This document shows positions 463-15,992 of a stretch of 64,000 nt of DNA, one piece after another. The notes beneath the pieces are model-generated. The model was given only the letters and a program-made list of their open reading frames with translations, was not told the origin of the DNA and ran no database searches. The DNA lies in assembly GCA_028868825.1 (NCBI GenBank), contig JAGWTU010000028.1, forward strand, positions 789 to 64,788, written 5' to 3'. The stretch comes from Burkholderiales bacterium (GTDB taxonomy: Bacteria; Pseudomonadota; Gammaproteobacteria; Burkholderiales; Burkholderiaceae_C). Numbering within the stretch: the first letter of the stretch is position 1; each line of letters opens with the position of its first letter. The translations under genes were made by a program, and so were the position numbers.

Positions 463-1428
463 TCAGGCCCGTGGCGACAGGGACATCAGCCATGAATAGA
501 TCAACCTCAATTGCAATGCGCGGGGGAAAGTCCTGATCGATGACTTCGAGGCGATCTCGCGAAAATACCGATGATCCTTCTCGTTCCAGGCCCACTGCGC
601 GGCCTCGATATTCGAGTCCACGATCGCCTGTTCGATGTCCGACCCGTATTTGGGCGGAATCCAGCCATCACGCCAGGCCTGGCGGAGCATCTCCGCACGC
701 TGCGTGTAGACCCTGCTCTTCTTCCTGGAGAAGCTGCCGCCATGGCGCCGGGTCTCGACCGTGATCCGATGGTCGCAGGCCACCCGCCCATGCAGCACGA
801 ACCGCCAGGTCAGATGGGCATCCCAGCAACCCAGGCGGCTGAATTGGGGATCGATGCCGCCGCACCGCTCGTACAGTTCGCGGCTGAAACAGGTGGAAGT
901 GGGGAAGACCGGATTGTTCCTCAGGAACGGCCCCAGCAGATCATGACCCAGGTCCTGAAATCCGTCCGCATCGGGCTTGGGGAAGGATTTCATCCAACCG
1001 GGGGGGATGTCGGCAAACGCATCGTAGTTCGGTCGCGAGTCCGGACCGAAGCTGGAGAAATTGGAAAACGTGTAGTCCACTTCCGGGTAGGCGTCCAGGA
1101 GCCTGACTCTGCGCGAAAGATGTTCCGGCCGCCAGCGGTCATCGTCGTCGCAAAGGGCGATCCACTCGTTGGAGCATCGCTCGATCGCCTTCTTCAATGC
1201 GGTGCCGGGTCCGCAATTCTCGATCTTGATATAGACGATGTCCTTGCTGACCGCTTCGATGGCTTCCCGCGTGCCGTCGGACGATCCGTCGTCCACGATG
1301 ACGATCTCGCTCGGCGGATACGCCTGCCCGAGTATGCAACCCAAGGTCTCGGGAATGATGTGGGCGCGATTGTAGGTGGCAATGGCGACCGAGATCTTTC
1401 TGTCGTTGCTCATGACCGGTGATGTCAA
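463..1428 (-). CDS. Glycosyltransferase family 2
   Basis: N-terminus ISVAIATYNRAHIIPETLGCILGQAYPPSEIVIVDDGSSDGT and a later DDDD (DXD-like) motif are typical of GT2. The start overlaps the upstream stop by 4 nt. Confidence 0.85.
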   Translation of the reverse strand: MTSPVMSNDRKISVAIATYNRAHIIPETLGCILGQAYPPSEIVIVDDGSSDGTREAIEAVSKDIVYIKIENCGPGTALKKAIERCSNEWIALCDDDDRWRPEHLSRRVRLLDAYPEVDYTFSNFSSFGPDSRPNYDAFADIPPGWMKSFPKPDADGFQDLGHDLLGPFLRNNPVFPTSTCFSRELYERCGGIDPQFSRLGCWDAHLTWRFVLHGRVACDHRITVETRRHGGSFSRKKSRVYTQRAEMLRQAWRDGWIPPKYGSDIEQAIVDSNIEAAQWAWNEKDHRYFREIASKSSIRTFPRALQLRLIYSWLMSLSPRA

Positions 1429-2072
1429 TCGTTGATGGGCGTGGCGACGGCGACGAACTGGTAGTACTTCATGTCCGCAGCCCAGGATCCCAGCAGCGGA
1501 TGCAGCAGTCGAGTCTTGTTTCCAGACTCGAAGTACGGATTGATGCCTTGCACCTTCGTGACCTCGTACCGGGCATCGGCAATCGTGCGCCGCAGACTTC
1601 TTTCGGTGAAGAATCGGAGATGCGTGTCATCGAGTATGCCCATCGGCGTGTATTTCCAATCCTTGCCGAACAGGAGATTCTTGACGTTCTCCACGTATCG
1701 AACATTCGGCACGCAACAGATCAGGACGCCGTTCTTCTTGAGCTTCCTGCGGGCCAGCTCCAGCGGAGTGCGCGGTTCGGGGAAATGTTCCAGGCTGTCG
1801 TTGAACGTCACGACGTCGAAGAAATCGTCGGGAATGGGCGATTCGGCGTCGAAGTAGCCGTGTATGACCTTGTCCAGCACCTTCGTGGCGTTCTTTGCCG
1901 TGGCTGCCACCGGCTCGACTCCCCACACCACGGCGCCGGACTGCTTCTTGACCTTGGCGCCGAATTCTCCGGACGAGCATCCGATATCCAGCAAGGTGGA
2001 AAACTTTCCGGGTAGATAGTCCAGGATCACGGCACGGTCGCCGGTGTACTTCTTTCCGTCCTCGTGACTCAA
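1425..2072 (-). CDS. Class I SAM-dependent methyltransferase
   Basis: SAM-binding motif I LLDIGCSSGEFG and later FDVVTFNDSLEHF. GC content is visibly lower than the rest of the window. Confidence 0.8.
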   Translation of the reverse strand: MSHEDGKKYTGDRAVILDYLPGKFSTLLDIGCSSGEFGAKVKKQSGAVVWGVEPVAATAKNATKVLDKVIHGYFDAESPIPDDFFDVVTFNDSLEHFPEPRTPLELARRKLKKNGVLICCVPNVRYVENVKNLLFGKDWKYTPMGILDDTHLRFFTERSLRRTIADARYEVTKVQGINPYFESGNKTRLLHPLLGSWAADMKYYQFVAVATPIND

Positions 2073-2145: not shown

Positions 2146-3807
2146 TTACGCTGGATGGCGCCAGTTCGGTGCATGGCTGCGCAGCCAATGTTCCAACATG
2201 ACCAGAATCCAGACCATCGTTCCGTAGTAATGCGGATGGTCCGGGAGCAGTCGGTCGAACAATTGGCTCTCGAATTCGGGCCGGACGATGCCGCGGGCGA
2301 CGAGGGAAGACACGGCGTCGACCGACAGGCGCCGAAGTCCGTCGTGCTGCACCATCCAGACCCCGAAGGGCAGGCCGAATCCCTGCTTCTTCTTGGTGAT
2401 GACGCCGTCGGGAAGAAAACCGCGCAAGGCCTCCTTGAAAAACCAGCGCAGCGCGTCGCCGCGCAGTTTGTAATCAGCCGGCAGCGTCATCGAGAAATCG
2501 ACGAGTGCGTCGTCGAGCATCGGGAATCCGACGGAAACGCCTGCCATCGTCGATGTGCCGACGACCTTGGGCAGGTCGCATTCGGCCAGCGTGTAGCGCC
2601 AGTCGTAGGCCAGATGGCGGTCGATCCCGTCAGTGCATTCGGCTTCGGCCCAGACCGCGCGCTGCTGGCGCACGGCGTCGGCGGGCTCGATGGCGGCGAC
2701 GAAGTCCCGCGTCAGCGCGGTGGACTCGCCGATCCGGCGCACATGGTTGTAGTCCTGGCCGCGTTCGGGCATGCCGAGATTGGCCAGCCGGATGTAGTTC
2801 GAACCCTTGCGCAGCCCAGGCAGGCTGGAGACGATGCCCAGGCCGAAGAACGGCTCGAGGAAACCGCGGCGGATCAATGCCGGAATGCGCGCGTAGGGTT
2901 CGAACAGCCTGTCGGTCGCATAGCGCGAATTGCCCCCGAACAGTTCGTCGCCACCGTCGCCGGCGAGCAGGCGGGTGATGCCGTCGGCGCGGGCGCGCTC
3001 GGCGCAGTGGAACGCCGGCAGCGCCGACGAATTGCCGAACGGCTGGTCGTACCAGGCGGCGACCTTGGGGATGTCGCGCACCAGATCCTCGGGGCTGAAG
3101 TAGATCTCGCGGTGTTCGCAGCCGAAATGCTTCGCGGCCAGCCTCGCGTACTCCATTTCGTCGTAGCCCTGGGCGGCAAAGCCGATGGAATAGGCCACCG
3201 CGGGTCGGCCCGCGGCCAGGCCGATCATTCCCGCTATGGTCGAGCTGTCGGTGCCGCCGCTGAGATAGCAGGCGGGTGTGCTGCCGTCGAGCTGGCGCGC
3301 CACGGCGTCCTGCAGCAGACGGCGGAATTCGGCGCGCAGCGCTTCGAAATCGGGTTCACGCCGGGGCTTGAACGCGGGCGTCCAGTAACGCTGCGGCGTC
3401 AGGCGGCCGTCCTTGAACAGGCCCCAATGCGCCGCCGGCAGGCGCTGCACGCCGTCGAACACGGTGCGCGGCGAGGGCACGACATGGAAATACAGGTAGT
3501 CGTACATCGCCTGCGGGCTGAGAGAGGCGCCCGCGGCCAGTTCATCGGCACGCTCGGCAAAGCGCAGGCTGCCGCCTTCGATGCGCCAGCACAGGGTGCG
3601 GATGGCAAAGCGGTCGACGGCGATGAAGACGCTGCCGTCGTCCAGCGGCAAGGCGACCGCGAAATCGCCACCGACCTGGGACGCGGCCGCGGCGACCCCG
3701 ACGCGGCTTATGAGGCTGCGCCAGGCCTGCGCCGGTTCGAGCGCGGCGTCGTCGGGGTCGGCGAACCGGGGTGATCCGATGCAGATTGAAGTGAGCGTGG
3801 TGTCCAT
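2146..3807 (-). CDS. Asparagine synthetase B family amidotransferase/ligase with a truncated N-terminal domain that lacks the Cys nucleophile
   Basis: PP-loop YLSGGTDSS at residues 181-189 and a long AsnB-like C-terminal synthetase domain. The N-terminus is MDTTLTSICIGS, not MCG. Confidence 0.8.
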   Translation of the reverse strand: MDTTLTSICIGSPRFADPDDAALEPAQAWRSLISRVGVAAAASQVGGDFAVALPLDDGSVFIAVDRFAIRTLCWRIEGGSLRFAERADELAAGASLSPQAMYDYLYFHVVPSPRTVFDGVQRLPAAHWGLFKDGRLTPQRYWTPAFKPRREPDFEALRAEFRRLLQDAVARQLDGSTPACYLSGGTDSSTIAGMIGLAAGRPAVAYSIGFAAQGYDEMEYARLAAKHFGCEHREIYFSPEDLVRDIPKVAAWYDQPFGNSSALPAFHCAERARADGITRLLAGDGGDELFGGNSRYATDRLFEPYARIPALIRRGFLEPFFGLGIVSSLPGLRKGSNYIRLANLGMPERGQDYNHVRRIGESTALTRDFVAAIEPADAVRQQRAVWAEAECTDGIDRHLAYDWRYTLAECDLPKVVGTSTMAGVSVGFPMLDDALVDFSMTLPADYKLRGDALRWFFKEALRGFLPDGVITKKKQGFGLPFGVWMVQHDGLRRLSVDAVSSLVARGIVRPEFESQLFDRLLPDHPHYYGTMVWILVMLEHWLRSHAPNWRHPA

Positions 3808-3835: not shown

Positions 3836-5302
3836 TCAAGCGTCGCGGATGCGGCGAGCCTGCAGCCGCGTCCTGAGGGGATTTGCGGCGCGCATGACCT
3901 CGCCCCACAGCGGGTGCCGGGTCGCCCGCACAGCCGCGAGCCAGGCCAAGGTGGTCAGCGAGCCGCCGATCAGCAACTGCCAGATGTAGTTGCCGGGGTG
4001 GGCCGGCATGACGTTGACGACGAGGACCATCGGCGCGAGCGCGAGCAGGGCCACCAGCAGGCTCGATGCCACCGACTCCCATAGACCGGCAACCGTGAAC
4101 CCGGCGCCGACCCGCATATGCCATTGCGACAGCCCGACCGTGCAGACGGCCGATGCCACCATGCCCCAGCAGGCGCCGGTGAGTCCCAAAGGAATCGCGA
4201 GCAGGAGCCCCAGTACCTGGGCGAGTTGTTGCAGGAACTGCAGCCTGGTTGCTAGTTTGACCTTGCCGCTGGACATCAAGGCTTCCTTGGCCATCGTGTG
4301 CATCATTTCCATGAATCCAGCCACGCAGAGGATTTGCGCGAGCGGCACCGCAGCGTCCCATTGCGGACCATAGACGATGCGTATGAGCGGAAACGCGGCC
4401 AATCCGAGGAAACCGATGATCGTGAAGGCGACGCCATTGAGCAGCTTGGCGCTGTGCGTATAGGCGCGTGACACGTTGCCGTCATCCCGGTCGGCGCGGG
4501 CGAAATACGGCATGAACACGGGGCCCACGGCCCGCGTGACCAGCATTCTGAACATCTGCATGAGGCCACCGCCGCGGCTGAAAAGGGCGACGCCGGTGAT
4601 GTCGAGCGCGCGACCGAGGATCATCTCCGGCGCGCCGCGGCCGAGTTGACCGATGGCGTAAAGACCGCTGGCGTAAGCGCCGAAACGCGCCACCTCGGCG
4701 AATCCCTTCGTCCCCGGCCAGCGGGGAAACTCCTTCGGCCTCAAGGCCATCGAGACGACGACGGTGATGACGACGCCCGCCAGGGACGAGTAGGCCAGGC
4801 TCAAGGCACCGAGGCCTCGCAAGCCGAGCCCTATCGCGACGATGAGGCTGACGACGTCCGAGGCGACGCTGCAGAAGAATATCGGCCTGAAATTCAGCTC
4901 GCGCCGGAACCAGGCCATGTTGATCGCCCCGAAGGGGATCAACAGGAAATTCACGCTCTGCACCTGCATCACCGTGGTGATTTCGGGCGAGCGATAGAAG
5001 GCGCCCACCGGCGACGCAAGGAGCAGCATCGCCAGGCCCATCGACCACGAGGTGACGATATTGACGAGGAAGGCCGCCCGGATGCGTTGGGTATCGAGAT
5101 CCTTCGCCTGGATCAGGTATTCGCCGATGCCGAAATCCCGCACGGTGCTGGCCAATGCGGCAAAGACGGCGGCAATGGCAAAGACGCCGACCTGCGCGGG
5201 TGTGAGGATGCGTGAAAGAACCGCGGTCGAGACCAGTTGCAGGCCTATGCTCACATAGGTCTGGACGGCGGAATAGGCGATCGATCGGCGCAAGTCAGAC
5301 AT
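3836..5302 (-). CDS. Polysaccharide/oligosaccharide flippase (MOP/Wzx-like polysaccharide biosynthesis protein)
   Basis: 488 aa, polytopic and hydrophobic. N-terminus AYSAVQTYVSIGLQLVSTAVLSRILTPAQVGVFAIA is typical of the Polysacc_synt family. Confidence 0.8.
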   Translation of the reverse strand: MSDLRRSIAYSAVQTYVSIGLQLVSTAVLSRILTPAQVGVFAIAAVFAALASTVRDFGIGEYLIQAKDLDTQRIRAAFLVNIVTSWSMGLAMLLLASPVGAFYRSPEITTVMQVQSVNFLLIPFGAINMAWFRRELNFRPIFFCSVASDVVSLIVAIGLGLRGLGALSLAYSSLAGVVITVVVSMALRPKEFPRWPGTKGFAEVARFGAYASGLYAIGQLGRGAPEMILGRALDITGVALFSRGGGLMQMFRMLVTRAVGPVFMPYFARADRDDGNVSRAYTHSAKLLNGVAFTIIGFLGLAAFPLIRIVYGPQWDAAVPLAQILCVAGFMEMMHTMAKEALMSSGKVKLATRLQFLQQLAQVLGLLLAIPLGLTGACWGMVASAVCTVGLSQWHMRVGAGFTVAGLWESVASSLLVALLALAPMVLVVNVMPAHPGNYIWQLLIGGSLTTLAWLAAVRATRHPLWGEVMRAANPLRTRLQARRIRDA

Positions 5303-5314
5303 GGTCGGCCTGCA

Positions 5315-6325
5315 TCAATGGGTCTGCGACCATGTGCGCCATGTCCGCCATTTGCAGCGGGCGGTATACAGCAACCACTTCAGGCCGGGTGCAGCCCCTA
5401 GGGCTTGGCCTGCGTAATGGCTGGCGTTGGGCCAGTCGCCCGCGGCGGCGTAATCGACCGCGATCTTCTTCAATGCGTAGCCTTTGTGCAAGCGGGCGTG
5501 GCGGCGGATGGCGGGGTCGGCGCTGCGTGCCAGCACGCGGTCCATCACGAGCGTCTGGTACAGGCGCTTGTCGATGCCGGCGGTGGCGGTGGTCACGTTG
5601 TTGCGCTGGCTCGGATCGGGCACATGGTGGCGCGAGACGACCGCCGGGTGATGGAGCATCAGCCGCGCCGGCTCGATCAGGTCGAGGTAGAGCTTGCGAT
5701 CCTGCTCCCAGCGGATGCCCTCGTCCATGCCGCCGACGCGCTCGTAGAGTTCGCGCCGGACCGTGAAGACGTTGAGGTGGCAGAAGCCGTCGATGCGCAA
5801 CAGGTCGGCCACCGTCACCTCGTAGCGTCCCTGCTCGTCGGGGCGGCGCCCGCGCGCCTCGAGGTCGGCGGCCAGCGCGCCCAGCCACAGCAGGCCCAGG
5901 CTGCGGTCACCGATCCAGGCCTCCTGGTTGCCCATGTAGAGATCGAGCACGCGGCCTTGCGCCGCGGCATCGCCGATGGCGCGCGCGACGCGGTCGAGGT
6001 GCCCGCTGTCGGTCCAGCGGTCATCGTCGTCGAGGAAGCAGAGGTGGCTGCCGCGCGCGTGCGCCGCACCGGTATTGAGCGCATAGCTCGGGCCATGGCC
6101 CCGCGGCCGCTCGACGAGCCGGTGCAGCGACCAGCGTTCGCCCAGCCTTTGCGCCGCCGCATCCCAGATCGGTTGGTAAGCCGACAGCGATTCGGCGCTC
6201 GATCCATCGTCGACGACGACGATCTCGACGTCGTCGCGGCCCTGCGCGAGCACCGAATCCAGCGCCTCGGCGAAGAGGGCGGGGCGGTTGCGCGTCGCGA
6301 TGACGACCGAGATCAGCGGGTTCAT
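5315..6325 (-). CDS. Glycosyltransferase family 2
   Basis: Internal start MNPLISVVIATRNRPALFAEALDSVLAQGRDDVEIVVVDDGSS, then FLDDDDRW. The ATG at 6325 overlaps the upstream stop by 4 nt. The upstream 282 aa of the listed ORF are Arg/Ala-rich run-on sequence. Confidence 0.8.
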   Translation of the reverse strand: MNPLISVVIATRNRPALFAEALDSVLAQGRDDVEIVVVDDGSSAESLSAYQPIWDAAAQRLGERWSLHRLVERPRGHGPSYALNTGAAHARGSHLCFLDDDDRWTDSGHLDRVARAIGDAAAQGRVLDLYMGNQEAWIGDRSLGLLWLGALAADLEARGRRPDEQGRYEVTVADLLRIDGFCHLNVFTVRRELYERVGGMDEGIRWEQDRKLYLDLIEPARLMLHHPAVVSRHHVPDPSQRNNVTTATAGIDKRLYQTLVMDRVLARSADPAIRRHARLHKGYALKKIAVDYAAAGDWPNASHYAGQALGAAPGLKWLLYTARCKWRTWRTWSQTH

Positions 6326-7203
6326 CGGGGTTCGCCCGGTCCGGGCTTCGCGCCCAGCAGCCAGCCGCCGAGGATTTCGCGCAGCAGGCCGCGCGACTCC
6401 GATGCCGAGAAGGTCTGGTCGGCATCGGGCAGGTCGTGACGATCGACGCGCCGCGGCGAGGTCAGCGCGCGCTGCCAGGGCGGCGCCGACGCGACGAGCT
6501 CGTCGAATTCGCGGCTGACCTGGCTGCGTCCGCTCATCACCAGCAGCAGATCGCCGCGGTAGCGCGTCAGCCCCTGGCACATGCGATCGATGAAATGCGG
6601 TGTGGTTGCCGCGGCGCGCGGCCGCGCGCCGATCAGCGCCGCGCATCGCGAACGGGCGCTGCGCGCCAGCGTGCCCAGCGCCGGCCTGGGGTCGTACTGC
6701 CCGCGCAGCACCTTGGACCAGAAATCGCGATCGAGGATGCGGCGGCTGAAATGGTCGACGGCGACCTTGTCGGCCGTCTCGTCGGTGTGCACCCAGGGGT
6801 TGCCGAGCGCGATGCCGGTGACCTCGGGGTATTGCCAGGCATTGATCATGATCGCCGACGCGGCGTCGCAGCCGCCCCAGAGCACGACCTCGTTCAAGCC
6901 CGGCACCTGGGCGCGGAAGGCCGCGATCGCCGCGCCGATGTCGGCGCCGACATCCTCGAAGCCGCCGAAGCGCCCCTCGCTGTCGCCCAGACCGCGGTGG
7001 TCGAAGCGCATCATCGGGATGCCCATCGCGGCGAGGTCGCGCGCCAGTTCGACCTGCAGCCGATTCACGCCGGCGCGGTATTGCGGGCCGCCGGCGACGA
7101 CCAGCAGCAGGCCGCGCGCCGCGACCTGCTCGGGCCGATGGACGATGCCGACGAGCTCGCTCCCCTCGCATTCGAAGACGATCGGCAGTTCGGTCGACTT
7201 CAT
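6322..7203 (-). CDS. Alpha/beta hydrolase, exosortase A system-associated 'hydrolase 1' type
   Basis: Starts at MKSTELPIVFECEG. Contains FDHRGLGDSEG and a nucleophile elbow VVLWGGCDAAS with Cys at the nucleophile position. Paired with a second hydrolase through 4-nt overlaps. Confidence 0.7.
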   Translation of the reverse strand: MKSTELPIVFECEGSELVGIVHRPEQVAARGLLLVVAGGPQYRAGVNRLQVELARDLAAMGIPMMRFDHRGLGDSEGRFGGFEDVGADIGAAIAAFRAQVPGLNEVVLWGGCDAASAIMINAWQYPEVTGIALGNPWVHTDETADKVAVDHFSRRILDRDFWSKVLRGQYDPRPALGTLARSARSRCAALIGARPRAAATTPHFIDRMCQGLTRYRGDLLLVMSGRSQVSREFDELVASAPPWQRALTSPRRVDRHDLPDADQTFSASESRGLLREILGGWLLGAKPGPGEPR

Positions 7204-8033
7204 GCTTGCGCTCCCATCAGGCGCGAGGTCGTCGCGATCAGATCGGGCGCCGATTCGGGAACCTGCAATTGCCAGATCTTGGGGCACACGGCCACCGCCG
7301 TCGCGACCTCGACGCCGACGCCGCGGATCTGCTCGACGGCGCGCTGGCTCGGAAGCGCCAGGCCGGTGTCGGAGGGGCCGACCATCTCGATCCAGTCGAT
7401 GCGCGGGCCCGGCGCGGCGAGGTGGTCGGCGAGCCGCATCGCCGCCAGGCCTTCGGCGAGCGCCGGCGTCAGCGGATAGCCGCCGACCTCGAGCGTCTCG
7501 CCGCCGCGCAGGCGCTCGCGTATCGATTCGGTCGTCTCGCGGGCCTCGGCGTGGACGATCTGCGTGGCGATGCGCAAGCGCAGGTGCTGGTTCAGGAACA
7601 GCTTGCCGTCGAGCACGGGCTGCCAGAAAAGCAGCCGCTCGACGGCGACCTCGCGCGCCGCGGCCAGCCGCGCCGCCAGCAAGGCACCGGTGCGCACGCC
7701 CCAGACGGTGAGCGGCAGCGCGCTGTCGTCGGCGAGCCAGCGCGCGGCCCGCTTCGCGTCGTCGAGCCAGAGATCCCAGTCGCCCTCGAGCGTCGAGCCG
7801 CCGCTCTCGCCGGTGCCGTGGTAGTCCAGCAGCAGGCAGCGATAGCCGAGCGCCGCCAGCGCGCGCGCCTGCTTGGCGGCATGGGCGCGGCAACGGTTCA
7901 TCTCCTCGGTGAAAGGCGGCAGGTAGAGCAGGGCGCCGCGGCGGGTCCCGGTGGGGACGATGTCGAGCGCGAACAGTCGCCGACCGCCGAGTTCGAGGAA
8001 ACGCGGTCGGGCGTGCGAGGTCCGTTCGCTCAC
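7200..8033 (-). CDS. Alpha/beta hydrolase-fold protein, exosortase A system-associated 'hydrolase 2' type
   Basis: GTG start (VSERTSH) overlapping the upstream stop as GTGA. Contains LLLDYHGTGESGG and an elbow-position sequence LTVWGVRTGALLA with Arg where the nucleophile is expected. Confidence 0.65.
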   Translation of the reverse strand: MSERTSHARPRFLELGGRRLFALDIVPTGTRRGALLYLPPFTEEMNRCRAHAAKQARALAALGYRCLLLDYHGTGESGGSTLEGDWDLWLDDAKRAARWLADDSALPLTVWGVRTGALLAARLAAAREVAVERLLFWQPVLDGKLFLNQHLRLRIATQIVHAEARETTESIRERLRGGETLEVGGYPLTPALAEGLAAMRLADHLAAPGPRIDWIEMVGPSDTGLALPSQRAVEQIRGVGVEVATAVAVCPKIWQLQVPESAPDLIATTSRLMGAQA

Positions 8034-8812
8034 GCTGCGGCCCTCGTCGGCAATTGCACCGACCGCTGCGCGCGCGCGATCAGCGCCGCGCGGTGTTCGC
8101 CGTAGGCCTGCAGCGCCTCTTCGTGCAGCGCCGTCGGTATCTCGATCTCGTCGTAGCTGCGCTTTTGCGCCGCGACCTTGCCCGATTTCAGCCGCGCGGA
8201 ATGGTCGCCCGCGGCGCCGCTGCCGGTGCGGTTGAAGACGCCGTATTCGGTCGGGATCGGTCCGTCCAATTGCAGCCAGTCGCCGAGCGCGGCCAGCGTC
8301 GGCGCCGTGTCGCTGACGATGAGTTCGGCGTCGAGGTAGAAATAAGGCGACTGCAGATTGCGCGCGACGCCGGCCAGCGACTTCAGCCGGTCGATGTAAT
8401 AGCGCGCCGCGCCTACGACCTCGGCCTCGGGCTGCGTGGGCAGATGTTCGCGGTAGAGCACGACGAGACTGCGGATCGATTGCGTCGGTTCGCGCAGCAT
8501 CAGGATCGTGCGGCTGCTCGGGCGCTCCAGCAGCGGCAGCGCGACGGCATGGCCGTCGTGCAGCACCTTGTCGAACATGTAGCGCGCGCCGGGCTTGGCG
8601 CTGTGGTCGGCGAAATGCAGCATCTTCTGGCGCCACAGGCTTTTCCAGCTGTAGTAGCCGATGTGCATCTCGTAATAGCCCTCGATCTGCGGGTGGCTGC
8701 CGAGCAGATGGCCGAGCAGGCTCGTATTGGCCCGCATATGGCTGAGCAGGAAGATGTTGCGGTGGCGCAGCACCAGCGACGGATTGGCGGCGAATGCCGA
8801 CAGCAGCGACAT
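8030..8812 (-). CDS. Sulfotransferase-like protein (putative)
   Basis: 5'-PSB-like motif IFLLSHMRANTSLLGHLLGSHPQI and 3'-PB-like motif MLREPTQSIRSL, about 260 aa. Assignment is by motif resemblance only. Confidence 0.5.
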   Translation of the reverse strand: MSLLSAFAANPSLVLRHRNIFLLSHMRANTSLLGHLLGSHPQIEGYYEMHIGYYSWKSLWRQKMLHFADHSAKPGARYMFDKVLHDGHAVALPLLERPSSRTILMLREPTQSIRSLVVLYREHLPTQPEAEVVGAARYYIDRLKSLAGVARNLQSPYFYLDAELIVSDTAPTLAALGDWLQLDGPIPTEYGVFNRTGSGAAGDHSARLKSGKVAAQKRSYDEIEIPTALHEEALQAYGEHRAALIARAQRSVQLPTRAAA

Positions 8813-8818: not shown

Positions 8819-10615
8819 TCAGTCCTGAGGTGGTTGGAGCCAGGCGTCGACCGAGGTCAGCACCTGTTTGCAGACGCGCTCGTAGACGGCGCGCGTCTTG
8901 CCGTAGGGGTCCGGCACTTCGACCTGCGCCGGGTTCGATGCGCTGGCGGCACCGAGCAGGTAGGCCTTGCCGCCGGCGGCCGGATGCTCGCGCGCGAGGC
9001 GGTCGAGGTGCGCGACTTCCATCGCGAACACGATGTCGGCGTCGGCGACGAGCCGGGCGTCGAGCGTGCGCGAATGCCAGGCGCCGAGTTCGACGCCGCC
9101 GGCGGCGGTGGCGGCGACGTCGACCATCGTCGGATCGGCGGGCCGCCCCGCGGGGCTGTGGAAGCCGGCCGAGGCGAATTCAAAGCGACCGGGGTAGCGG
9201 CGCTCGGCATAGGCCTGGGCAAGCGCACTGCGGTTGATGTTGCCGTGGCAGAGGAAGACGATGCGCCGCGCCTTGCGCAGGCGTTGGCGTGCCGGCGCCG
9301 CGGCGCGCAGCTCGCGCTCGAGCCGGCGCCGCTGCGCGACGATGGCGCCGAAGCGGCGCGCCTGGTGGCTGGCGATGCGGCCGAGGTCGACGAGCCCGGG
9401 CCAGGGATCGCGCCAGCTCTGGACGTCGAAATGGTGGCGCGGCGAGAACATCAGCAGCCAGTCGCGCAGCACTTCGCGCTTGGACGGCAGCGTGACGAGT
9501 TGCGGTGGCGCCGCCTTGCGCAGCACATGCTCGGACCAGTCGATGTCGCGCGCGAGATGGCGCGCGACGATGCCGCTGCGCGCCGCCGGCCAGTCGCCGA
9601 CGTGCCCGGTGGTCCACAGCTCATGCAGCATGGCCGGGAAGTCGGCGCCGGCGGCGACGGCCAGCGGCAGCGAGCCCCAGAAGCGGCCGTTGATCTCGAC
9701 GAGGACGAAGGCGCCTGTCTGCGGCTGGTACTTGAACTCGACCATCGCGACGCCATGCCAGCGCAGCGCCTGCATGAGCTTGCGCGAGGCCTCGAGCAGC
9801 GCCGGCACCGGCGCCTCGCTCACGCGCAGCGTGCTGCCGCCGCCGGTCAGCGGCACCTCGTGCAGCCGACGGTGCTGGAAGGCGTAGCGGACCTCGCCCT
9901 GGTCGGCGATCAATTCGATCCCGACCCCGTCGCCGCGGAAGTATTCCTGGAGGATCACGGCGCCATGGCGCAGCGCCGAGGTCGCCTCGGCCTCGAGACC
10001 GGCGTCGTCGAAGGCGTAGGCGACGCGCAGCTGGACGCGTTCGCCCGCGCCGCCGCCGACCGAGCGCGCCGGCTTGACGACGACGGGGTAGCCGAGATCC
10101 TTCGCCGCGGCGACGGCCTCGGCCGGGGAGGCGACGACGATGGACCGGGGCACCGGGATGCCGAGCGAGCGCGCGAGCGCGCCGGTGCGGTCCTTGTCGA
10201 GCACCTGCTCGAGTGCCTCGGCGCTTGCCATCGCGATGGGTTCGCCCTCGAAGCGCGAGCGCGCGCGCATCAGCGGCACCAGCGTGCGCTCGGTGACCGG
10301 AATCACGAGTCCGCGCCGCCGCTCGTCCAGCTGTTGCCGCAGCCAAGCGACGAATCCGGCCTCGTCGCGCAATGGATCGGGGTAGCGCAGGCAGGCCGCG
10401 ACATGGCGCGAACTGGCGGCGAGCGGGTGTTCGACATCGCTGGCGACCTCGACGGCCAATCCGCGACGCGCGAGCGCGCGCACGATCGACAGCGTCGACG
10501 CCTGGTCGCCGTCAAGGACGAGCACCGAAGGTCTGGCTGCACGGGGCGGTTCGGGCTTCGCTGGGCTGGGCATCTCGCAGGGTTGCGCGCCCCGGCCTCG
10601 CCGGCGCCTACGCAC
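8819..10615 (-). CDS. Fusion protein: N-terminal ATP-grasp ligase domain plus C-terminal low-molecular-weight phosphotyrosine phosphatase (Wzb/ArsC-fold) domain
   Basis: The ATP-grasp region (about 9596-10528) contains GYPVVVKPARS, ILQEYF and GVAMVEFKY...VLVEINGRFWGS. The LMW-PTP region (about 8822-9268) has the P-loop IVFLCHGNINRS (C at 9248-9250) and the general-acid motif VPDPYG. The start is uncertain: GTG at 10615 or ATG at 10573. Confidence 0.75.
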   Translation of the reverse strand: MRRRRRGRGAQPCEMPSPAKPEPPRAARPSVLVLDGDQASTLSIVRALARRGLAVEVASDVEHPLAASSRHVAACLRYPDPLRDEAGFVAWLRQQLDERRRGLVIPVTERTLVPLMRARSRFEGEPIAMASAEALEQVLDKDRTGALARSLGIPVPRSIVVASPAEAVAAAKDLGYPVVVKPARSVGGGAGERVQLRVAYAFDDAGLEAEATSALRHGAVILQEYFRGDGVGIELIADQGEVRYAFQHRRLHEVPLTGGGSTLRVSEAPVPALLEASRKLMQALRWHGVAMVEFKYQPQTGAFVLVEINGRFWGSLPLAVAAGADFPAMLHELWTTGHVGDWPAARSGIVARHLARDIDWSEHVLRKAAPPQLVTLPSKREVLRDWLLMFSPRHHFDVQSWRDPWPGLVDLGRIASHQARRFGAIVAQRRRLERELRAAAPARQRLRKARRIVFLCHGNINRSALAQAYAERRYPGRFEFASAGFHSPAGRPADPTMVDVAATAAGGVELGAWHSRTLDARLVADADIVFAMEVAHLDRLAREHPAAGGKAYLLGAASASNPAQVEVPDPYGKTRAVYERVCKQVLTSVDAWLQPPQD

Positions 10616-10624: not shown

Positions 10625-11362
10625 TCAATGGGTAGCGGCGCTTGCGCCGCTTGCGGCGTCGACCGGCGCCGAAGCCGCGGAGGCAGGCGGATCGGACCAT
10701 TCGCCCTTCGCGCGCAGTCGCTCGATCAGGTCCTTGCGCTCCATGCCTTCATCCATCGCGGCCCAGGCCTGCTCTCGAGCATCCTTGTAGCGGCCCATCT
10801 GGAAGTAAAGCAGACCCAGGTTGTAGTGGGTGAACGGATTGTCTCCGGCCTTGATCGCGACATAGTCGAGCTGCATCGACGCGTCCTTGGGCCGACCGAG
10901 CTGGATCATGTAGTCGGCGTGCAGCATGCGCACGATCAGATCGTCGGGGCGGAATCGCTCGGCGCGCAGGAAATAGCATTCGACCGTGTAGTCGAGATTG
11001 CCCGGTTGAGGTGTCTTGTCGCGGATCGACCAGCGCATCAGCGTCGCCAGACCGCGCGGATGGTTCGGAAAGGCGTGCAGCAGGAAGGCAATTTCGGCCG
11101 CGAGGGTCCCCGTATTGCCATGTTCCAGATTCTCGACGTTGGGCGTGAAGTGATTGCTCTCGACCATGCGGACACCCGGATTGGTGCGGAAATCCCACGG
11201 TCCTCGGTTGTTCGGGATCGGAAAGGTATTGGTGCGCGGGCAAGGTTCGATCAACGTCTCGACCGCGCTTTGCCCCCAGGCCCATTGAGCCGACAACGTG
11301 CAGGCAAGCACGCCTGCGGTGGCGAGCCACCGATGTGAGCAGAGTCGCGGACCTGGAGCCAT
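10625..11362 (-). CDS. Secreted protein of unknown function with a TPR-like C-terminal region
   Basis: The internal start MAPGPRLCSHRWLATAGVLACTLSAQWAWGQ looks like a signal peptide. The C-terminal NPFTHYNLGLLYFQMGRYKDAREQAWAAM is TPR-like. I recognised no enzyme motif. Confidence 0.55.
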   Translation of the reverse strand: MAPGPRLCSHRWLATAGVLACTLSAQWAWGQSAVETLIEPCPRTNTFPIPNNRGPWDFRTNPGVRMVESNHFTPNVENLEHGNTGTLAAEIAFLLHAFPNHPRGLATLMRWSIRDKTPQPGNLDYTVECYFLRAERFRPDDLIVRMLHADYMIQLGRPKDASMQLDYVAIKAGDNPFTHYNLGLLYFQMGRYKDAREQAWAAMDEGMERKDLIERLRAKGEWSDPPASAASAPVDAASGASAATH

Positions 11363-11366
11363 CGCC

Positions 11367-11618
11367 TCAAGTCCCGACGCGTTCGACGATGAACCGGCAC
11401 AGGCTGCCGACGGTCGCAAACGTCTCGCCGCTGATCTCGTCGTCCTCGACCGAGATGCCGAAGCGGTCCTCCATCGCGCCGACGAGGCTGACGACGGCCA
11501 TGCTGTCGAGTTCGGGGATCGAGCCGAGCAGACGCGTGTCGGCGTCGAAGGATTGGGCACGGCCGTGCAGACCGAGCACGTCGTCCAGCATGTTCAGCAC
11601 TTCCTTGTTCGTATCCAC
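11367..11618 (-). CDS. Acyl carrier protein (stand-alone, exosortase A-associated type)
   Basis: 83 aa and acidic, with the phosphopantetheine attachment motif LDSMAVVSL. GTG start. Confidence 0.8.
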   Translation of the reverse strand: MDTNKEVLNMLDDVLGLHGRAQSFDADTRLLGSIPELDSMAVVSLVGAMEDRFGISVEDDEISGETFATVGSLCRFIVERVGT

Positions 11619-11854
11619 GCTAGTCCGCTTCTTCGATTGGGGTTGGTCGGTGGACGGCGCCGGGTCGGCGCGGACACACCGCTACGCCCGCGATCATATC
11701 GGCGTCGATTCCCGGCTAGGCGGCCATCCCGGCCACCTCGATGGGAGTCGTGCCATTGTTGGCGTTTCCACCTCGCCGGACCCCGTTCGACTCGTTGAAA
11801 ATCCCGCCGAGCGGCCGCCGATCGTGGCGGACTAACATCGTCCCATCCGGCGCC

Positions 11855-11871
11855 GGTTCGCCTGGCGAACC
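11855..11871 (+). promoter_or_regulatory. 17-nt palindrome GGTTCGCC-T-GGCGAACC in the divergent control region, 20 nt upstream of the ligase ATG
   Basis: Perfect 8-bp arms read directly from the sequence. It could be an operator or a 5'-UTR hairpin. Confidence 0.3.
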
Positions 11872-11890
11872 CGCCCGTAGCACTCCCGAC

Positions 11891-13498
11891 ATGAGCCCAC
11901 ATCCTCCCGAAGCCGCGCTGCTGCACGAGTTGATCTTCCGCGCCCGGTCGCTGACGCCGCAGGCGCCGGCGCTGACCTATGGCGCCGAGACCTGGACCTA
12001 CGAGCGCCTGGCGCAGGACACCGCGGCCTTCGCCGCCGGGCTGCGCGCACTCGGCCTCGAACGCGGCGAGCGCGTCGGCATCTGGCTCGAGAAGCGGTTC
12101 GAGGCCGTCGTCGCGAGTTTCGGCACCGCCGCCGCGGGCCTCGTGATGGTGCCGATGAACCCGCTGCTCAAGCCCGAACAGGTGGGCCACATCGCGCGCG
12201 ATTGCAACGCCCGCGTCATCGTCACGTCACCCGAGCGTGCTGCGCTGCTGGCCGCCGTGCTGCCGCAATGCCCGGACCTGCGCCACCTCGTGCTCACCGA
12301 CGGCCAGGCCGCGCCGGCGGGCGGCGCGGTCGCCGTGCAGCGCTGGTCCGAGCTGCTGGCTGCATTGCCTGCCGACGGCCATCGCGTCATCGACACCGAC
12401 ATCTGCGCCATCCTCTACACGAGCGGCTCGACCGGGCTGCCCAAGGGCGTCGTGCTCAGCCACCGCAACATGGTCGCCGGTGCCAAGAGCGTCGCCAGCT
12501 ATCTCGAGAACCGCGCCGGCGACACGCTGCTGGCGGCGCTGCCGCTGTCGTTCGACGCCGGCTTCAGCCAGCTCACCACCGCCTTCCACGCCGGTGCCCG
12601 CGTCGTGCTGCTGAACTACCTGATGCCGCGCGACGTGCTCAAGGCGATGGCGCGCGAGCGCGTCACCGGGCTCACCGCCGTGCCGCCGCTGTACATCCAG
12701 CTCACGCAGCTCGAATGGCCGGCCGAGGTCGGCGAGCATCTGCGCTATTTCGCCAACACCGGCGGGCGCATGCCGCGCGAGACGCTGGATGCACTGCGCC
12801 AGCGCGTGCCGCGCGCACTGCCGTTCCTGATGTACGGCCTCACCGAGGCCTTCCGCAGCACCTACCTGCCGCCGGCCGAGGTCGACCGACGCCCCGACAG
12901 CATCGGCCGCGCGATACCGAACGCCGAGATCCTCGTGCTGCGCGAGGACGGCAGCGAGTGCGCACCCGACGAGCCGGGCGAACTCGTGCACCGCGGCGCG
13001 CTCGTCGGCCAGGGCTACTGGAACGATGCCGAGAAGACGGCCGAGCGCTACCGCCTGCTCGGCGCCGGCCGCGGCGGCCGCATGGCCGGGCTGCAGCTGC
13101 CCGAATACGCCGTGTTCAGCGGCGACACGGTACGCCGCGATGCCGAAGGATTTCTCTATTTCATCGGCCGCCGCGACGAGATGATGAAGACCTCGGGCTA
13201 CCGCGTCAGTCCGACCGAGGTCGAGGAGATCGTCTATTCGACCAGGCGCGTCGGCGAATGCGTCGCGTTCGGCGTCGACCACCCGAGCCTGGGCCAGGCG
13301 ATCCAGATCATCGCCACCGCGCCCGACGGCAGCGCGGCGCTCGACGTGCCCGCGCTGCTCGCCGATTGCAAGCAGCGCATGCCGGCCTACATGGTGCCGG
13401 CCGGCATCCACCCGATGGCCGGCCCGCTGCCGCGCAACCCCAACGGCAAGATCGACCGCAAGCTGCTGGCGACGCAATGGTTGGAGACGCCCCGATGA
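11891..13498 (+). CDS. Acyl-CoA ligase (AMP-forming), exosortase A system-associated type
   Basis: Adenylate-forming motifs ILYTSGSTGLPKGV, YGLTE, SGDTVRRDAEGFLYFIGRRDEMMKTSGYRV and PRNPNGKIDRK. Start taken at MSPHPPEAALLHE. Confidence 0.85.
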   Translation: MSPHPPEAALLHELIFRARSLTPQAPALTYGAETWTYERLAQDTAAFAAGLRALGLERGERVGIWLEKRFEAVVASFGTAAAGLVMVPMNPLLKPEQVGHIARDCNARVIVTSPERAALLAAVLPQCPDLRHLVLTDGQAAPAGGAVAVQRWSELLAALPADGHRVIDTDICAILYTSGSTGLPKGVVLSHRNMVAGAKSVASYLENRAGDTLLAALPLSFDAGFSQLTTAFHAGARVVLLNYLMPRDVLKAMARERVTGLTAVPPLYIQLTQLEWPAEVGEHLRYFANTGGRMPRETLDALRQRVPRALPFLMYGLTEAFRSTYLPPAEVDRRPDSIGRAIPNAEILVLREDGSECAPDEPGELVHRGALVGQGYWNDAEKTAERYRLLGAGRGGRMAGLQLPEYAVFSGDTVRRDAEGFLYFIGRRDEMMKTSGYRVSPTEVEEIVYSTRRVGECVAFGVDHPSLGQAIQIIATAPDGSAALDVPALLADCKQRMPAYMVPAGIHPMAGPLPRNPNGKIDRKLLATQWLETPR

Positions 13499-14730
13499 GC
13501 CGCACCGCCCCCGTCCATGTGCCGATGTCGCAGTTCCCGCGCGTCGATGGCGAACTCACCGTCGGCGGCGAGCGGCTGAGCGTGCTCGCCGCGCGCGTCG
13601 CCAGCACGCCTTTCTACGCCTACGACCGCGCATTGATCCGCGCGCGCGTCGCCGCGCTGCGCGCCGCGCTGCCCTCGGCGGTGATGCTGCATTACGCGAT
13701 GAAGGCCAACCCGATGCCGGCCGTCGTCGCGCTGATGGTCGGGCTCGTCGACGGCATCGACGTCGCCTCGGGCGGCGAGTTGCGCGTGGCGCTCGACGCC
13801 GGCGCCGCGGCGGCCGACGTCAGCTTCGCCGGGCCCGGCAAGCGCGATGTCGAACTGCGCCAGGCGGTGGCCTCGCGCGTGCTCGTGAATGTCGAATCGG
13901 CGCGCGAGCTCCCGATCCTGGCGCAGGCCTCGCAGGAGCTCGGCCTGCCGGCGCGCGTGGCCGTGCGCGTGAACCCGGACTTCGAGCTCAAGGGCTCGGG
14001 CATGAAGATGGGCGGCGGGCCCAAGCAGTTCGGCATCGATGTCGAGCAGGTGCCGGCGGTGCTCGCGCGCATCGGCGAGCTCGGCCTCGCGTTCGAGGGC
14101 TTCCACCTCTATTCGGGTTCGCAGAACCTCAACGCCGAATCGATCTGCGAGGCGCAGCGCCAGTCGTTCGAACTCGCGCTGCGGCTGGCCGCGCTGGCGA
14201 GCGCGCCGGTGCGCCACCTCAACCTCGGTGGCGGCTTCGGCGTGCCGTATTTCCCGGGGCAGGAGCGGCTCGACCTGGCGCCCATCGGCGCCAACCTCGA
14301 GCGGCTGGCCGAGCGGCTCGAGACGGCGATGCCGGGAGCTTCGATCGTCATCGAGCTCGGCCGCTATTTCGTCGCCGAGGCCGGCGTCTACGTCACCCGC
14401 GTCGTCGACCGCAAGCTCTCGCGCGGCGAGGTCTTCCTCGTCTGCGATGGCGGCCTCAACCACCATCTGGCGGCCTCGGGCAACTTCGGCCAGGTGGTGC
14501 GCAAGAACTACCCGGCGGCGATCGGCCGGGCGCCACAGGGTGGCGCGGTCGAGGTCGCGTCGGCCGTCGGCCCGCTGTGCACGCCGCTGGACATCCTGGC
14601 CGACCGCATGGAGCTGCCGCAGGCCGAGATCGGCGATCTGGTCGTCATCTTCCAGTCCGGCGCCTACGGGCCGTCGGCCAGCCCGCAGGCCTTCCTCGGA
14701 CACCCGGCCTGCACCGAAGTGCTGGTTTGA
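13495..14730 (+). CDS. PLP-dependent decarboxylase (Orn/DAP/Arg decarboxylase fold), exosortase A system-associated type
   Basis: ATGA overlap with the ligase stop. PLP-lysine context LHYAMKANP, then GFHLYSGSQ and CDGGLNHH, all typical of the DAP-decarboxylase family. Confidence 0.85.
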   Translation: MSRTAPVHVPMSQFPRVDGELTVGGERLSVLAARVASTPFYAYDRALIRARVAALRAALPSAVMLHYAMKANPMPAVVALMVGLVDGIDVASGGELRVALDAGAAAADVSFAGPGKRDVELRQAVASRVLVNVESARELPILAQASQELGLPARVAVRVNPDFELKGSGMKMGGGPKQFGIDVEQVPAVLARIGELGLAFEGFHLYSGSQNLNAESICEAQRQSFELALRLAALASAPVRHLNLGGGFGVPYFPGQERLDLAPIGANLERLAERLETAMPGASIVIELGRYFVAEAGVYVTRVVDRKLSRGEVFLVCDGGLNHHLAASGNFGQVVRKNYPAAIGRAPQGGAVEVASAVGPLCTPLDILADRMELPQAEIGDLVVIFQSGAYGPSASPQAFLGHPACTEVLV

Positions 14731-14750
14731 CGGGGGCGGCAAGCGGTGCG

Positions 14751-15992
14751 GTGCGCCGGTCGCGTCGCGGCATCGGTTGCCTGCTTGCGCTGTTCGGCTT
14801 CGGCCTGGTCGTCGTGCTCGGTCTGCGCGCCGGCAGCGCAGCGCTGCGCGACGCGCCGCGCTCACCCGGCGAGATGATCGACCACGCCGAGCGCCGCCTC
14901 GTCGGCCATCCGCGCCTGCAGCGCTGGGGCGTGCCGATGCTCGAGGAACTGCGCGTCGCGCTCGGCGAGCCCAGCCCGGCCGAGCGCGCGCTGCCGTTCG
15001 CGGTGCCGCCGCTCGCGCCCAACCCGATGCAGGCGCCGGCGGCTGCGGCTGCGGACGATGCGCGCGTGATCCGCGTCGGGCCGACGCGCGCGATCCGCAC
15101 CATCGCCGAGGCGGCGCGGCGCGCCGTCGACGGCAGCGTGATCGAGATCGACCCCGGCGACTACCACCGCGACGTCGCCGTCTGGGACCGCGCGCGGTTG
15201 ACGATCCGCGGCCGCGGCGACCGCGTACGCCTGATCGCCGACGGTGCCAGCGCCGAGGGCAAGGCGATCTGGGTCGTGCGCCGCGGCGAGGTCACGATCG
15301 AGAACATCGAGTTCGTCGGCGCCCGCGTACCCGATCGCAACGGCGCCGGGATCCGGCTCGAGAGCGGCCAGCTGCTGGTGCGCCAATGCCGCTTCTACGC
15401 CAGCGAGAGCGGCATCATCACCGCCGCCGATGTGCGCTCGACGCTCGACGTCGAGGATTCCGAATTCGGCTTCCTCGGTCAAGGCGACGGCTACAGCCAT
15501 GGCATCTATGTCGGCGCCATCGCCTCGTTCAGGCTGGTCGGCAGCTACCTGCACGACGGCAATGCCGGCCACCTCGTCAAGTCGCGCGCCTGGAAGAACG
15601 TGCTCGCCTACAACCGCCTCATCGACGGGCCCGCCGGTCGCTCGAGCTACGAGGTCGAATTCCCGAACGGCGGCGAGGTCGAGATGGTCGCCAACGTGGT
15701 CGAGCAGGGGCGCAGATCACGCAACTCGGTCATCGTCTCGTACGCCGCGGAAGGCTATCGATATGCGACGAACCGGCTGCACCTGCGCGCGAACGTCATC
15801 GTCAACGACGGCCGCTGGGGCGGCACCTTCGTGCATGTCGCCCCCGGCCCGGCGAAGGTCGAACTGGTCGACAACCTCTGGGCCGGCGGCGGCCGGCTCG
15901 ACGTGCCGCCGGGTGCCCAGGAGAGCGGCAATCGATCGGCCGACTGGCCCTACGACATCGTGGTCCCGCCACCGATGAAGGTGCTGCCATGA
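14751..15992 (+). CDS. Membrane-anchored right-handed parallel beta-helix repeat protein (candidate polysaccharide lyase/epimerase)
   Basis: N-terminal TM segment GIGCLLALFGFGLVVVLGL. Repeated beta-helix-like units (NGAGIRLESGQLLVRQCRF, SESGIIT, HGIYVG, NAGHLVKSRA). The start is uncertain: GTG at 14751 or TTG at 14727. Confidence 0.7.
   Translation: MRRSRRGIGCLLALFGFGLVVVLGLRAGSAALRDAPRSPGEMIDHAERRLVGHPRLQRWGVPMLEELRVALGEPSPAERALPFAVPPLAPNPMQAPAAAAADDARVIRVGPTRAIRTIAEAARRAVDGSVIEIDPGDYHRDVAVWDRARLTIRGRGDRVRLIADGASAEGKAIWVVRRGEVTIENIEFVGARVPDRNGAGIRLESGQLLVRQCRFYASESGIITAADVRSTLDVEDSEFGFLGQGDGYSHGIYVGAIASFRLVGSYLHDGNAGHLVKSRAWKNVLAYNRLIDGPAGRSSYEVEFPNGGEVEMVANVVEQGRRSRNSVIVSYAAEGYRYATNRLHLRANVIVNDGRWGGTFVHVAPGPAKVELVDNLWAGGGRLDVPPGAQESGNRSADWPYDIVVPPPMKVLP

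Follow-up and report, generated by a model that had tools for sequence, protein, structure and literature searches.

An ATP-grasp ligase fused to a Wzb-like low-molecular-weight phosphatase: a widespread, generically named architecture in an exopolysaccharide locus of a Burkholderiales bacterium

The window considered here is a 64,000-nucleotide stretch of the Burkholderiales bacterium assembly GCA_028868825.1 (contig JAGWTU010000028.1, positions 789 to 64,788 of the forward strand), and coordinates below are those of the window. An exopolysaccharide (EPS) locus at its beginning encodes a single protein in which an ATP-grasp ligase module is followed by a low-molecular-weight phosphotyrosine phosphatase (LMW-PTP) domain, hereafter the fusion. 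The gene and its two parts are as follows:

8819..10615, minus strand: fusion gene, ATP-grasp ligase plus LMW phosphatase (open reading frame (ORF) translation, Pfam matches and a third-codon-position GC content (GC3) of 0.89)
9296..10528, minus strand: ATP-grasp module, residues ~30-440 (pre-ATP-grasp domain, ATP-grasp core and conserved C-terminal subdomain)
8837..9268, minus strand: LMWPc (Wzb-like) domain, residues 450-593 (Pfam match, PDB relatives and alignment to Wzb)

The fusion ORF opens with a GTG codon at 10615 and encodes 598 amino acids, with its coordinates taking in the stop codon. As residues 1-28 are unconserved in an alignment of 41 homologues (50-87 % identity), and homologues are about 575-585 amino acids in length, the true start is probably the ATG codon at 10573 (M15), which would yield a protein of 584 amino acids. 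The GC contents of the three codon positions (0.77/0.52/0.89) represent a coding signature at a genome GC content of approximately 70 %, and the GC3 signal is unbroken along the ORF. The original prediction of one ORF with two domains is borne out by the intact frame and by Pfam matches above cut-off for both domains, although the strand (minus) was absent from it. All of the motifs it quoted (GYPVVVKPARS, ILQEYF, MVEFKY...LVEINGRFWGS, CHGNINRS and VPDPYG) were found, and each domain retains a complete active site whose catalytic residues are invariant among the 41 homologues. An AlphaFold model of the fusion gave a predicted local distance difference test score (pLDDT) of 90 and a predicted template modelling score of 0.84. 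Residues 355-446 are conserved and are modelled confidently as a C-terminal subdomain and a long helix (404-446) which joins the two domains; this region is no loose linker. The phosphatase was rightly placed from about residue 450 onwards, but the ATP-grasp part, which had been taken to end at about residue 340, reaches approximately residue 440.

The N-terminal module is a member of the ATP-grasp superfamily on the basis of its profile, its fold and its conserved ATP/Mg ligands. Matches were obtained to the Pfam families CPSase_L_D2 (residues 140-321; 48.4 bits versus a cut-off of 19.8) and ATPgrasp_Ter (residues 219-354; 42.1 bits versus 29.1), the residues K181, E307, N309 and R311 are invariant in the 41-homologue alignment, and the module is modelled with a pLDDT mostly above 90. 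Foldseek comparison against the PDB matched it to biotin carboxylase, carbamoyl phosphate synthetase and L-amino-acid ligases with a probability of 1.0. Among the fifty PDB matches listed there was neither a fused LMW-PTP domain nor a close two-domain superposition, and long alignments were confined to carbamoyl phosphate synthetase and its duplicated ATP-grasp halves, with root mean square deviations of 14-21. Since the matches are to generic ATP-grasp proteins only, the structural comparison is uninformative on the substrate of the ligase. The three-part ATP-grasp fold with a pre-ATP-grasp domain is shared with the 'carbamoyl phosphate synthase-like' proteins of PRK12767 (PDB 2pn1), with RizA (4wd3) and with BL00235 (3vot), at a Foldseek probability of 1.0 and target-normalised TM scores of ~0.58-0.76, but with just 14-20 % identity, and a phosphatase domain is absent from all of them. 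The best-scoring NCBIfam ATP-grasp model was likewise a PRK12767 sub-model (67.1 bits), well below its equivalog cut-off of 390.

The C-terminal domain is a member of the LMW-PTP superfamily, with a full-length profile match, a C-X5-R-(S/T) loop and a DP loop. The Pfam LMWPc (PF01451) match covers residues 452-593 and profile positions 1-144 of 144 (69.8 bits versus 23.2; E 3.6e-19). The P-loop CHGNINRS (C456-S463) is encoded at 9227-9250 and the general-acid loop D569-P570-Y571 at 8903-8911, and C456, G458, N459, I460, N461, R462, S463, D569, P570 and Y571 are invariant among the 41 homologues; the domain is consequently predicted to be catalytically competent. Across the wider family, the P-loop is found in 81/82 members from related loci, with the consensus C-x-G-N-(I/L/V)-x-R-S, where the sixth position is Asn in the sub-clade of the window protein (CxGNINRS) and Cys in remoter members (CxGNICRS). 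An aromatic residue follows the DP acid in 73/82 members. An Ile residue at P-loop position 5, together with an aromatic crevice wall, is typical of phosphotyrosine-specific LMW-PTPs. The closest PDB relatives of the domain are Wzb (2fek; 7e-15) and AmsI (4d74; 8e-12), with the arginine phosphatase YwlE a far weaker match (5e-6). It shares 33 % identity with Escherichia coli Wzb end to end over 143 columns, with equal loop lengths, and the top NCBIfam LMW-PTP models are Etp/PRK11391 (65.8 bits) and Wzb/PRK10126 (62.5 bits). In common with Wzb, Etp and AmsI, the domain thus has the full-length LMWPc fold, a CX5R(S) loop at the domain start, a DPY loop and a polysaccharide-locus setting. Those enzymes, however, stand alone at about 150 amino acids, whereas here the phosphatase is the C-terminal domain of a 598-amino acid ligase, and unlike Wzb its gene lies outside any wza-wzb-wzc arrangement.

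Two other activities known for this fold were considered. ArsC chemistry, as in Staphylococcus aureus pI258 ArsC, needs an extra conserved cysteine pair for a disulfide relay. The ArsC-type option that had been raised for the domain does not hold, as C456 is its only invariant cysteine, with no second or third one conserved; an ArsC-type arsenate reductase is ruled out, and no ArsC model occurs among the best 25 of 46 NCBIfam matches. Arginine phosphatases have Thr at P-loop position 5 (C-x-G-N-T-C-R-S). A YwlE-type arginine phosphatase is also rejected, given that I460 is invariant and that Ile, Leu or Val occupies this position in all fusion-family members.

The two-domain architecture is widely distributed. 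In a search of 5.8 billion proteins, all of the 120 best 90 %-identity clusters share both domains in one protein, with lengths of 545-620 amino acids save for three shortened entries (436-495 amino acids), and carriers include Burkholderiales, Aquabacterium, Rubrivivax, Nitrogeniibacter, Denitromonas and Competibacteraceae. When the 50 %-identity representatives were searched exhaustively, 16097 matches were obtained at E<=1e-3 and 1691 clusters at E<=1e-30, and both domains are present in 136/149 of the best new representatives, down to approximately 32 % identity. Fused genes also turned up in a scan of metagenomes, in contigs from marine, sediment, sludge and soil samples and at identities as low as approximately 29 %. 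The rarity implied by the original prediction is therefore contradicted by the 1691 clusters matching at E<=1e-30. The worry voiced there that the ORF might be a fusion created by sequencing is removed by the same searches. It could be supposed that an ATP-grasp ligase gene and a stand-alone Wzb gene were joined by sequencing or assembly error, as stand-alone arrangements do occur in a few distant loci (L081 and possibly L009). This is vanishingly improbable, however, considering that the 120 nearest clusters, from independent assemblies, and the 136/149 representatives keep both domains in one protein, that the junction (355-446) is conserved and confidently modelled, and that the GC3 coding signal runs through it. 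A sequencing or assembly fusion is ruled out by the universality of the architecture among the nearest relatives.

The same distribution bears on the idea that a housekeeping or redox protein of the LMW-PTP fold, of ArsC or YwlE type, was fused to the ligase by chance. Some homologues are indeed named 'arsenate reductase/protein-tyrosine-phosphatase family protein', and a relationship to YwlE can be detected. Nevertheless, the ArsC cysteine pair is missing, the P-loop carries Ile rather than Thr, the genomic context is always one of polysaccharide assembly, and a chance fusion is unlikely to have persisted in 136/149 diverged representatives, making this explanation highly improbable.

Homologue names in the databases are generic. 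Besides the name given above, 'ATP-grasp domain-containing protein' and 'protein-tyrosine-phosphatase/predicted ATP-grasp superfamily ATP-dependent carboligase' are used, and no curated NCBIfam model matches the fusion above its cut-off. In the literature on ATP-grasp proteins with phosphatase, Wzb, PEP-CTERM or exosortase cassette genes, no account of the fusion was found. The founding PEP-CTERM paper makes no mention of a phosphatase, ATP-grasp protein, ligase or decarboxylase, and the fusion is unlisted in the published accounts of floc formation in Aquincola and Acidovorax and of the biofilm clusters of Rubrivivax. The original prediction held that a common and functionally assigned architecture would count against its view of the protein as uncharacterised: the architecture has proved to be common, but it bears generic names and no functional assignment. 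The fusion is thus a widespread architecture of two known kinds of domain, which is only generically named.

The fusion gene is the third gene of a tightly packed minus-strand operon, which faces a divergent plus-strand group. The other genes of the locus are, from the operon start onwards and then for the divergent group:

11367..11618, minus strand: acyl carrier protein (ACP), 83 amino acids, first gene of the operon (Pfam PP-binding, 33.2 bits versus 20.8)
10625..11364 (start approximate), minus strand: tetratricopeptide repeat (TPR) protein directly upstream of the fusion gene (weak TPR_1/TPR_2 matches, below cut-off)
8030..8812, minus strand: sulfotransferase-like protein of 260 amino acids directly downstream of the fusion gene (weak, sub-threshold Sulfotransfer_3 match of 30.9 bits, N-terminal P-loop only)
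7200..7985, minus strand: hydrolase 2, exosortase A system-associated (TIGR03101, 232.7 bits versus 202.75)
6322..7191, minus strand: hydrolase 1, exosortase A system-associated (TIGR03100, 256.5 bits versus 168.45)
5315..6320 (start approximate), minus strand: glycosyltransferase of family 2 (GT2) (Pfam Glycos_transf_2, 77.8 bits)
3836..5302, minus strand: MOP/Wzx-type flippase (Pfam Polysacc_synt_3, 180 bits)
2146..3807, minus strand: asparagine-synthase-like amidotransferase (Pfam Asn_synthase, 239 bits; TIGR03108, 215 bits versus a cut-off of 817)
1425..2072, minus strand: S-adenosylmethionine-dependent methyltransferase in the same gene string (Pfam Methyltransf_23, 70.6 bits versus 27)
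463..1428, minus strand: GT2 glycosyltransferase, last visible gene at the window edge (Glycos_transf_2, 95.9 bits versus 23.3)
11741..13498, plus strand: acyl-CoA ligase (AMP-forming), exosortase A system-associated, divergent (TIGR03098, 759.8 bits versus 592)
13537..14730 (start approximate), plus strand: pyridoxal phosphate (PLP)-dependent decarboxylase, exosortase A system-associated (TIGR03099, 602 bits versus 478)
14577..15992, plus strand: beta-helix-like protein of 471 amino acids (weak Beta_helix match of 18.5 bits, below cut-off; GC3 0.85)
15986..18496, plus strand: polytopic membrane protein of 836 amino acids at the end of the polysaccharide locus (GC3 0.93-0.95)

The placing of the fusion in an EPS-decoration operon is upheld by the ACP, hydrolase 1 and 2, GT2, flippase and asparagine-synthase-like genes within the same operon. 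Furthermore, within 5 kb of the fusion gene there are matches above cut-off to each of the four curated markers TIGR03098, TIGR03099, TIGR03100 and TIGR03101, and the locus can therefore be assigned to the XrtA (exosortase A)/PEP-CTERM-associated type. Neither an exosortase nor PEP-CTERM proteins were seen in the 64-kb window, where PEP-CTERM tails were sought with a regular-expression search, and membership of the locus type is based on the accessory markers alone; the window begins inside the EPS cluster, and any XrtA core would lie outside the visible DNA. All four families of the XrtA/PEP-CTERM accessory cassette surround the fusion gene, and the same gene order recurs in relatives, but the fusion family extends far beyond loci with this cassette and, unlike the cassette proteins, is not matched by any curated model above cut-off.

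Several of the immediate neighbours are conserved in related loci. The ACP gene occupies the same position in L012, L095 and L096, the TPR neighbour is conserved in L001, L002, L006, L011, L012 and L096, and the sulfotransferase-like neighbour is conserved at 66-93 % identity in L001, L002, L003 and L005. In close relatives the order is ligase, ACP, TPR, fusion, (GT2), sulfotransferase-like, hydrolase 2, hydrolase 1, flippase and asparagine-synthase-like. In L096 the ACP-hydrolase 2-hydrolase 1 triplet is found twice (5873-7814 and 12816-14772), once on each side of the fusion gene, and this locus also encodes a FemAB-like protein and a pyruvyl transferase. With regard to sulfation, the window signal at 8030-8812 is joined by CysN/CysC (adenosine phosphosulfate kinase) bordering the Nitrogeniibacter locus L011 (19649-21556) and by five sulfotransferase genes in L013 (2114-15707), and the polysaccharides of fusion loci may be sulfated. 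The alignments of the asparagine-synthase-like protein to the models of asparagine synthase and of the XrtA amidotransferase begin only at model position ~111-118, so that the protein lacks the N-terminal glutaminase part; its homologue in L012 likewise has only the Asn_synthase Pfam domain. Judging from these alignments, the protein may be a second, glutamine-independent amide-forming enzyme of the operon.

On the plus strand, the beta-helix-like ORF probably starts later than 14577, as that position overlaps the end of the decarboxylase gene. The 836-amino acid membrane protein matches neither Pfam nor NCBIfam models; it probably belongs to the polysaccharide machinery, possibly as a polymerase- or ligase-like component. 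Relatives of the beta-helix-like and membrane proteins form one protein of 1492 amino acids in L031. The EPS locus thereby extends to approximately 18.5 kb, ending just before yajC-secD-secF. On the minus strand at 5315-8636, overlapping ORFs of 618, 523 and 478 amino acids contain the real genes (GT2, hydrolase 1 and hydrolase 2) only in their C-terminal parts. As long overlapping ORFs are typical of high-GC DNA, mechanical ORF lists overstate the gene lengths in this region.

The wider context was surveyed by clustering the ORFs of 94 related loci without prior labels, and six loci were annotated with Pfam over 10 kb on either side of the fusion gene. Exactly one fusion is encoded in 77/94 loci. 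Among these 77, a GT2 gene within 6 kb is the commonest neighbour (46/77), followed by NodB deacetylase genes (26/77), while extra ATP-grasp-only paralogues (17), a further unannotated family (15), the flippase (14) and hydrolases 1 and 2 (13) also recur. The gene immediately upstream encodes a NodB deacetylase in 16/59 loci and a member of the unannotated cluster-7 family in eight more, and the gene immediately downstream encodes a GT2 enzyme in 16/63 loci. Neighbour clusters 7, 15 and 19 and the 260-amino acid sulfotransferase-like protein have no NCBIfam match and, save for the sub-threshold Sulfotransfer_3 match of the last, no Pfam match. UDP-sugar dehydrogenases, a source of uronic acids, are encoded in several related loci. 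In some proteins the fusion is enlarged further: a NodB deacetylase (P0137 and P0150) or a FemAB-like Acetyltransf_6 domain (P0199 and P0235) is combined with ATP-grasp and LMWPc, as is a GINT1_N-like domain (P0258), and in P0179 ATP-grasp and LMWPc are combined with GT2. These larger fusions place the unit firmly among the cytoplasmic enzymes that tailor the amines and carboxylates of repeat-unit sugars.

The phosphatase module is not invariably joined to the ATP-grasp protein. In L085 (8270-10351) LMWPc is fused to a GT4 glycosyltransferase beside an ATP-grasp-only orthologue, in L009 (10762-12556) it directly follows a GT4, and in L081 (118-1907) a stand-alone, convergent LMWPc gene abuts the ATP-grasp gene. 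These arrangements suggest that the phosphatase module can exist apart from the ATP-grasp chemistry. Several extra ATP-grasp-only paralogues (380-430 amino acids) are apparently encoded beside one phosphatase-bearing copy in the distant loci L009, L079, L086 and L087. Their numbers are uncertain, as BLAST cluster 0 also drew in GT4 glycosyltransferases; if the paralogues are real, the glycans of these four loci may be decorated with multiple amides.

On balance, we tentatively favour the view that the fusion tailors glycans as an amide ligase and carries, on the same chain, an active phosphotyrosine phosphatase of the Wzb type, which serves the tyrosine autokinase of the pathway. It would represent a bifunctional cytoplasmic protein of the XrtA (exosortase A)/PEP-CTERM exopolysaccharide pathway. 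The first domain, as a putative ATP-grasp carboxylate-amine ligase, would use an acyl-phosphate as the activated form of a carboxylate, and the amide formed from it would be located on the repeat unit of the polysaccharide. Because GT2, NodB, FemAB-like and ligase/ACP/decarboxylase/hydrolase partners recur, this amide could arise by addition of an amine onto a uronic acid or of an acid onto a de-N-acetylated amino sugar. The original prediction suggested, as an example, that the ligase might add the amine made by the neighbouring decarboxylase. Such an enzyme is indeed encoded in the window locus, but the coupling lacks generality, as no PLP decarboxylase occurs within 10 kb of the fusion gene in 3/6 Pfam-annotated loci. 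The second domain, a Wzb-type low-molecular-weight cysteine phosphatase held to the first by the long helix, would most likely act on phosphotyrosine, either that of the tyrosine autokinase/co-polymerase of the pathway or that of the target enzymes of this kinase. With the two domains tethered, the phosphatase would be brought to the assembly complex, which could couple decoration to polymerisation and export.

The kinase required by this scheme was sought with phmmer searches in which every ORF of the window and of the 94 related loci was compared with Wzc, Wza and Wzb of E. coli. A link occurs in L043 (9986-13828) and L063 (1695-5461), where a tyrosine autokinase (TIGR01007, 117.5 bits versus a cut-off of 108; TIGR03018, 132 bits) is encoded two genes from the fusion, after an XrtA-type ATPase (TIGR03015-like). 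The order in both is XrtA-type deacetylase (TIGR03006, above cut-off), NodB deacetylase, fusion, pepcterm_ATPase-like protein, tyrosine autokinase and a 'stp2'-like GT4. The fusions of these loci are distant (~36 % identity) and are embedded in an XrtA core-like cluster. No second LMW-PTP is encoded anywhere in the 64-kb window. A screen for bacterial tyrosine kinases based on a Walker-A motif and a C-terminal tyrosine cluster found nothing, the criterion being too crude.

A number of observations weigh against a phosphatase that serves a kinase. No Wzc or Wza homologue was detected by phmmer in the 64-kb window, which starts inside the EPS locus, and a tyrosine kinase homologue is encoded in only 4/94 related loci, as far as the sequence near the fusion extends. 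Wzz, GNVR and AAA_31 genes occur in none of the six Pfam-annotated contexts. Such a kinase lies near the fusion in L043 and L063, but in neither the window nor most relatives, as far as the available sequence extends. The scores of the domain are also far below the equivalog cut-offs of Wzb and Etp (PRK10126, 243 bits; PRK11391, 247 bits), and a Wzb joined to a biosynthetic enzyme is, to our knowledge, without precedent. Finally, the phosphatase tracks one ATP-grasp orthologue group, from 87 % down to ~30 % identity, and not a kinase, which is the pattern expected of sequential catalytic steps.

Sequential steps are the basis of the main alternative explanation, in which the substrate that the ATP-grasp domain attaches to the repeat unit is a small molecule bearing a phosphate, and the LMW-PTP-fold domain then strips this phosphate. 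The donor could be a phospho-amine (ethanolamine-P or serinol-P) or a phospho-acid (phosphoglycerate), and the fused phosphatase would correspond to the haloacid dehalogenase (HAD) phosphatase Cj1435, which follows the amidoligase Cj1438C in Campylobacter jejuni capsule synthesis. In the HS:2 capsule glucuronamide pathway of this species, the PLP decarboxylase Cj1436 produces ethanolamine-P, the ATP-grasp domain of Cj1438, which is fused to GT2, amidates glucuronate with the phospho-amine, and the separate phosphatase Cj1435 takes off the phosphate after amidation (PMC11800397). The C. jejuni and window loci both encode a PLP decarboxylase, an ATP-grasp ligase, a GT2 and a phosphatase, with some of these domains fused, and in C. 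jejuni tailoring takes place on the growing glycan, as would also be the case for the window locus. They differ in that the ATP-grasp families are distinct (TupA-like PF14305 in Cj1438C versus CPSase_L_D2/ATPgrasp_Ter-like in the fusion), the phosphatase is a HAD enzyme in the former and of the LMW-PTP fold in the latter, the window decarboxylase is of the ornithine/diaminopimelate/arginine (Orn/DAP/Arg) type, and the window locus encodes a MOP/Wzx-type flippase. No homology of the ligase to Cj1438C was detected at the sequence level (hhalign probability 0.08 against the 41-sequence profile, with no PF14305 match in the window protein), and the likeness is functional only.

In agreement with ligation followed by dephosphorylation are the decarboxylase in the window locus, the frequency of GT2 as a neighbour and its fusion to the protein in P0179, the UDP-sugar dehydrogenases of several loci, the stability of the fusion across ~30-87 % identity, the confidently modelled helix joining the domains and the absence of a tyrosine kinase from most loci. 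Synthase-phosphatase fusions follow a common logic, known for trehalose-P, sucrose-P and mannosyl-phosphoglycerate, which also speaks for such an enzyme. Conversely, LMW-PTPs favour aryl phosphates, and the aromatic crevice residues of the phosphotyrosine type are retained across the fusion family. Sequence homology to Cj1438C is missing, the phosphatase domain is sometimes carried by GT4, the decarboxylase is missing from half of the six annotated loci and no enzyme making a phosphorylated donor was identified. Taking both sides into account, we consider this two-step enzyme possible but somewhat unlikely. That the LMW-PTP fold has in this manner come to serve as a phosphatase in glycan tailoring, so that the fusion ligates a phosphorylated block, strips its phosphate and installs an amide-linked substituent, possibly an amine handle, on an EPS of the exosortase type, must be seen as rather doubtful.

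Tyrosine-kinase co-polymerases need a phosphatase partner in order to cycle. In the XrtA/PEP-CTERM systems of floc- and biofilm-forming bacteria, such as wastewater Betaproteobacteria, there is a curated tyrosine autokinase, but we know of no phosphatase assigned to it. The fusion family, with more than 1000 clusters at 50 % identity, ties a Wzb-like domain to a decoration enzyme, and sometimes also to a deacetylase, a FemAB-like transferase or a glycosyltransferase, and as such the fusion is a concrete candidate for the coordination of decoration with polymerisation. As cultured carriers exist (Nitrogeniibacter mangrovi and Pseudaquabacterium rugosum), genetic analysis is feasible. Should the fusion instead prove to ligate and then dephosphorylate, the range of the LMW-PTP fold would extend to glycan-bound phosphates, the first substrate class for this fold that is neither protein nor arsenate, and the fusion would provide both an entry point to, and a chemical function for, the long-unexplained exosortase A accessory cassette.

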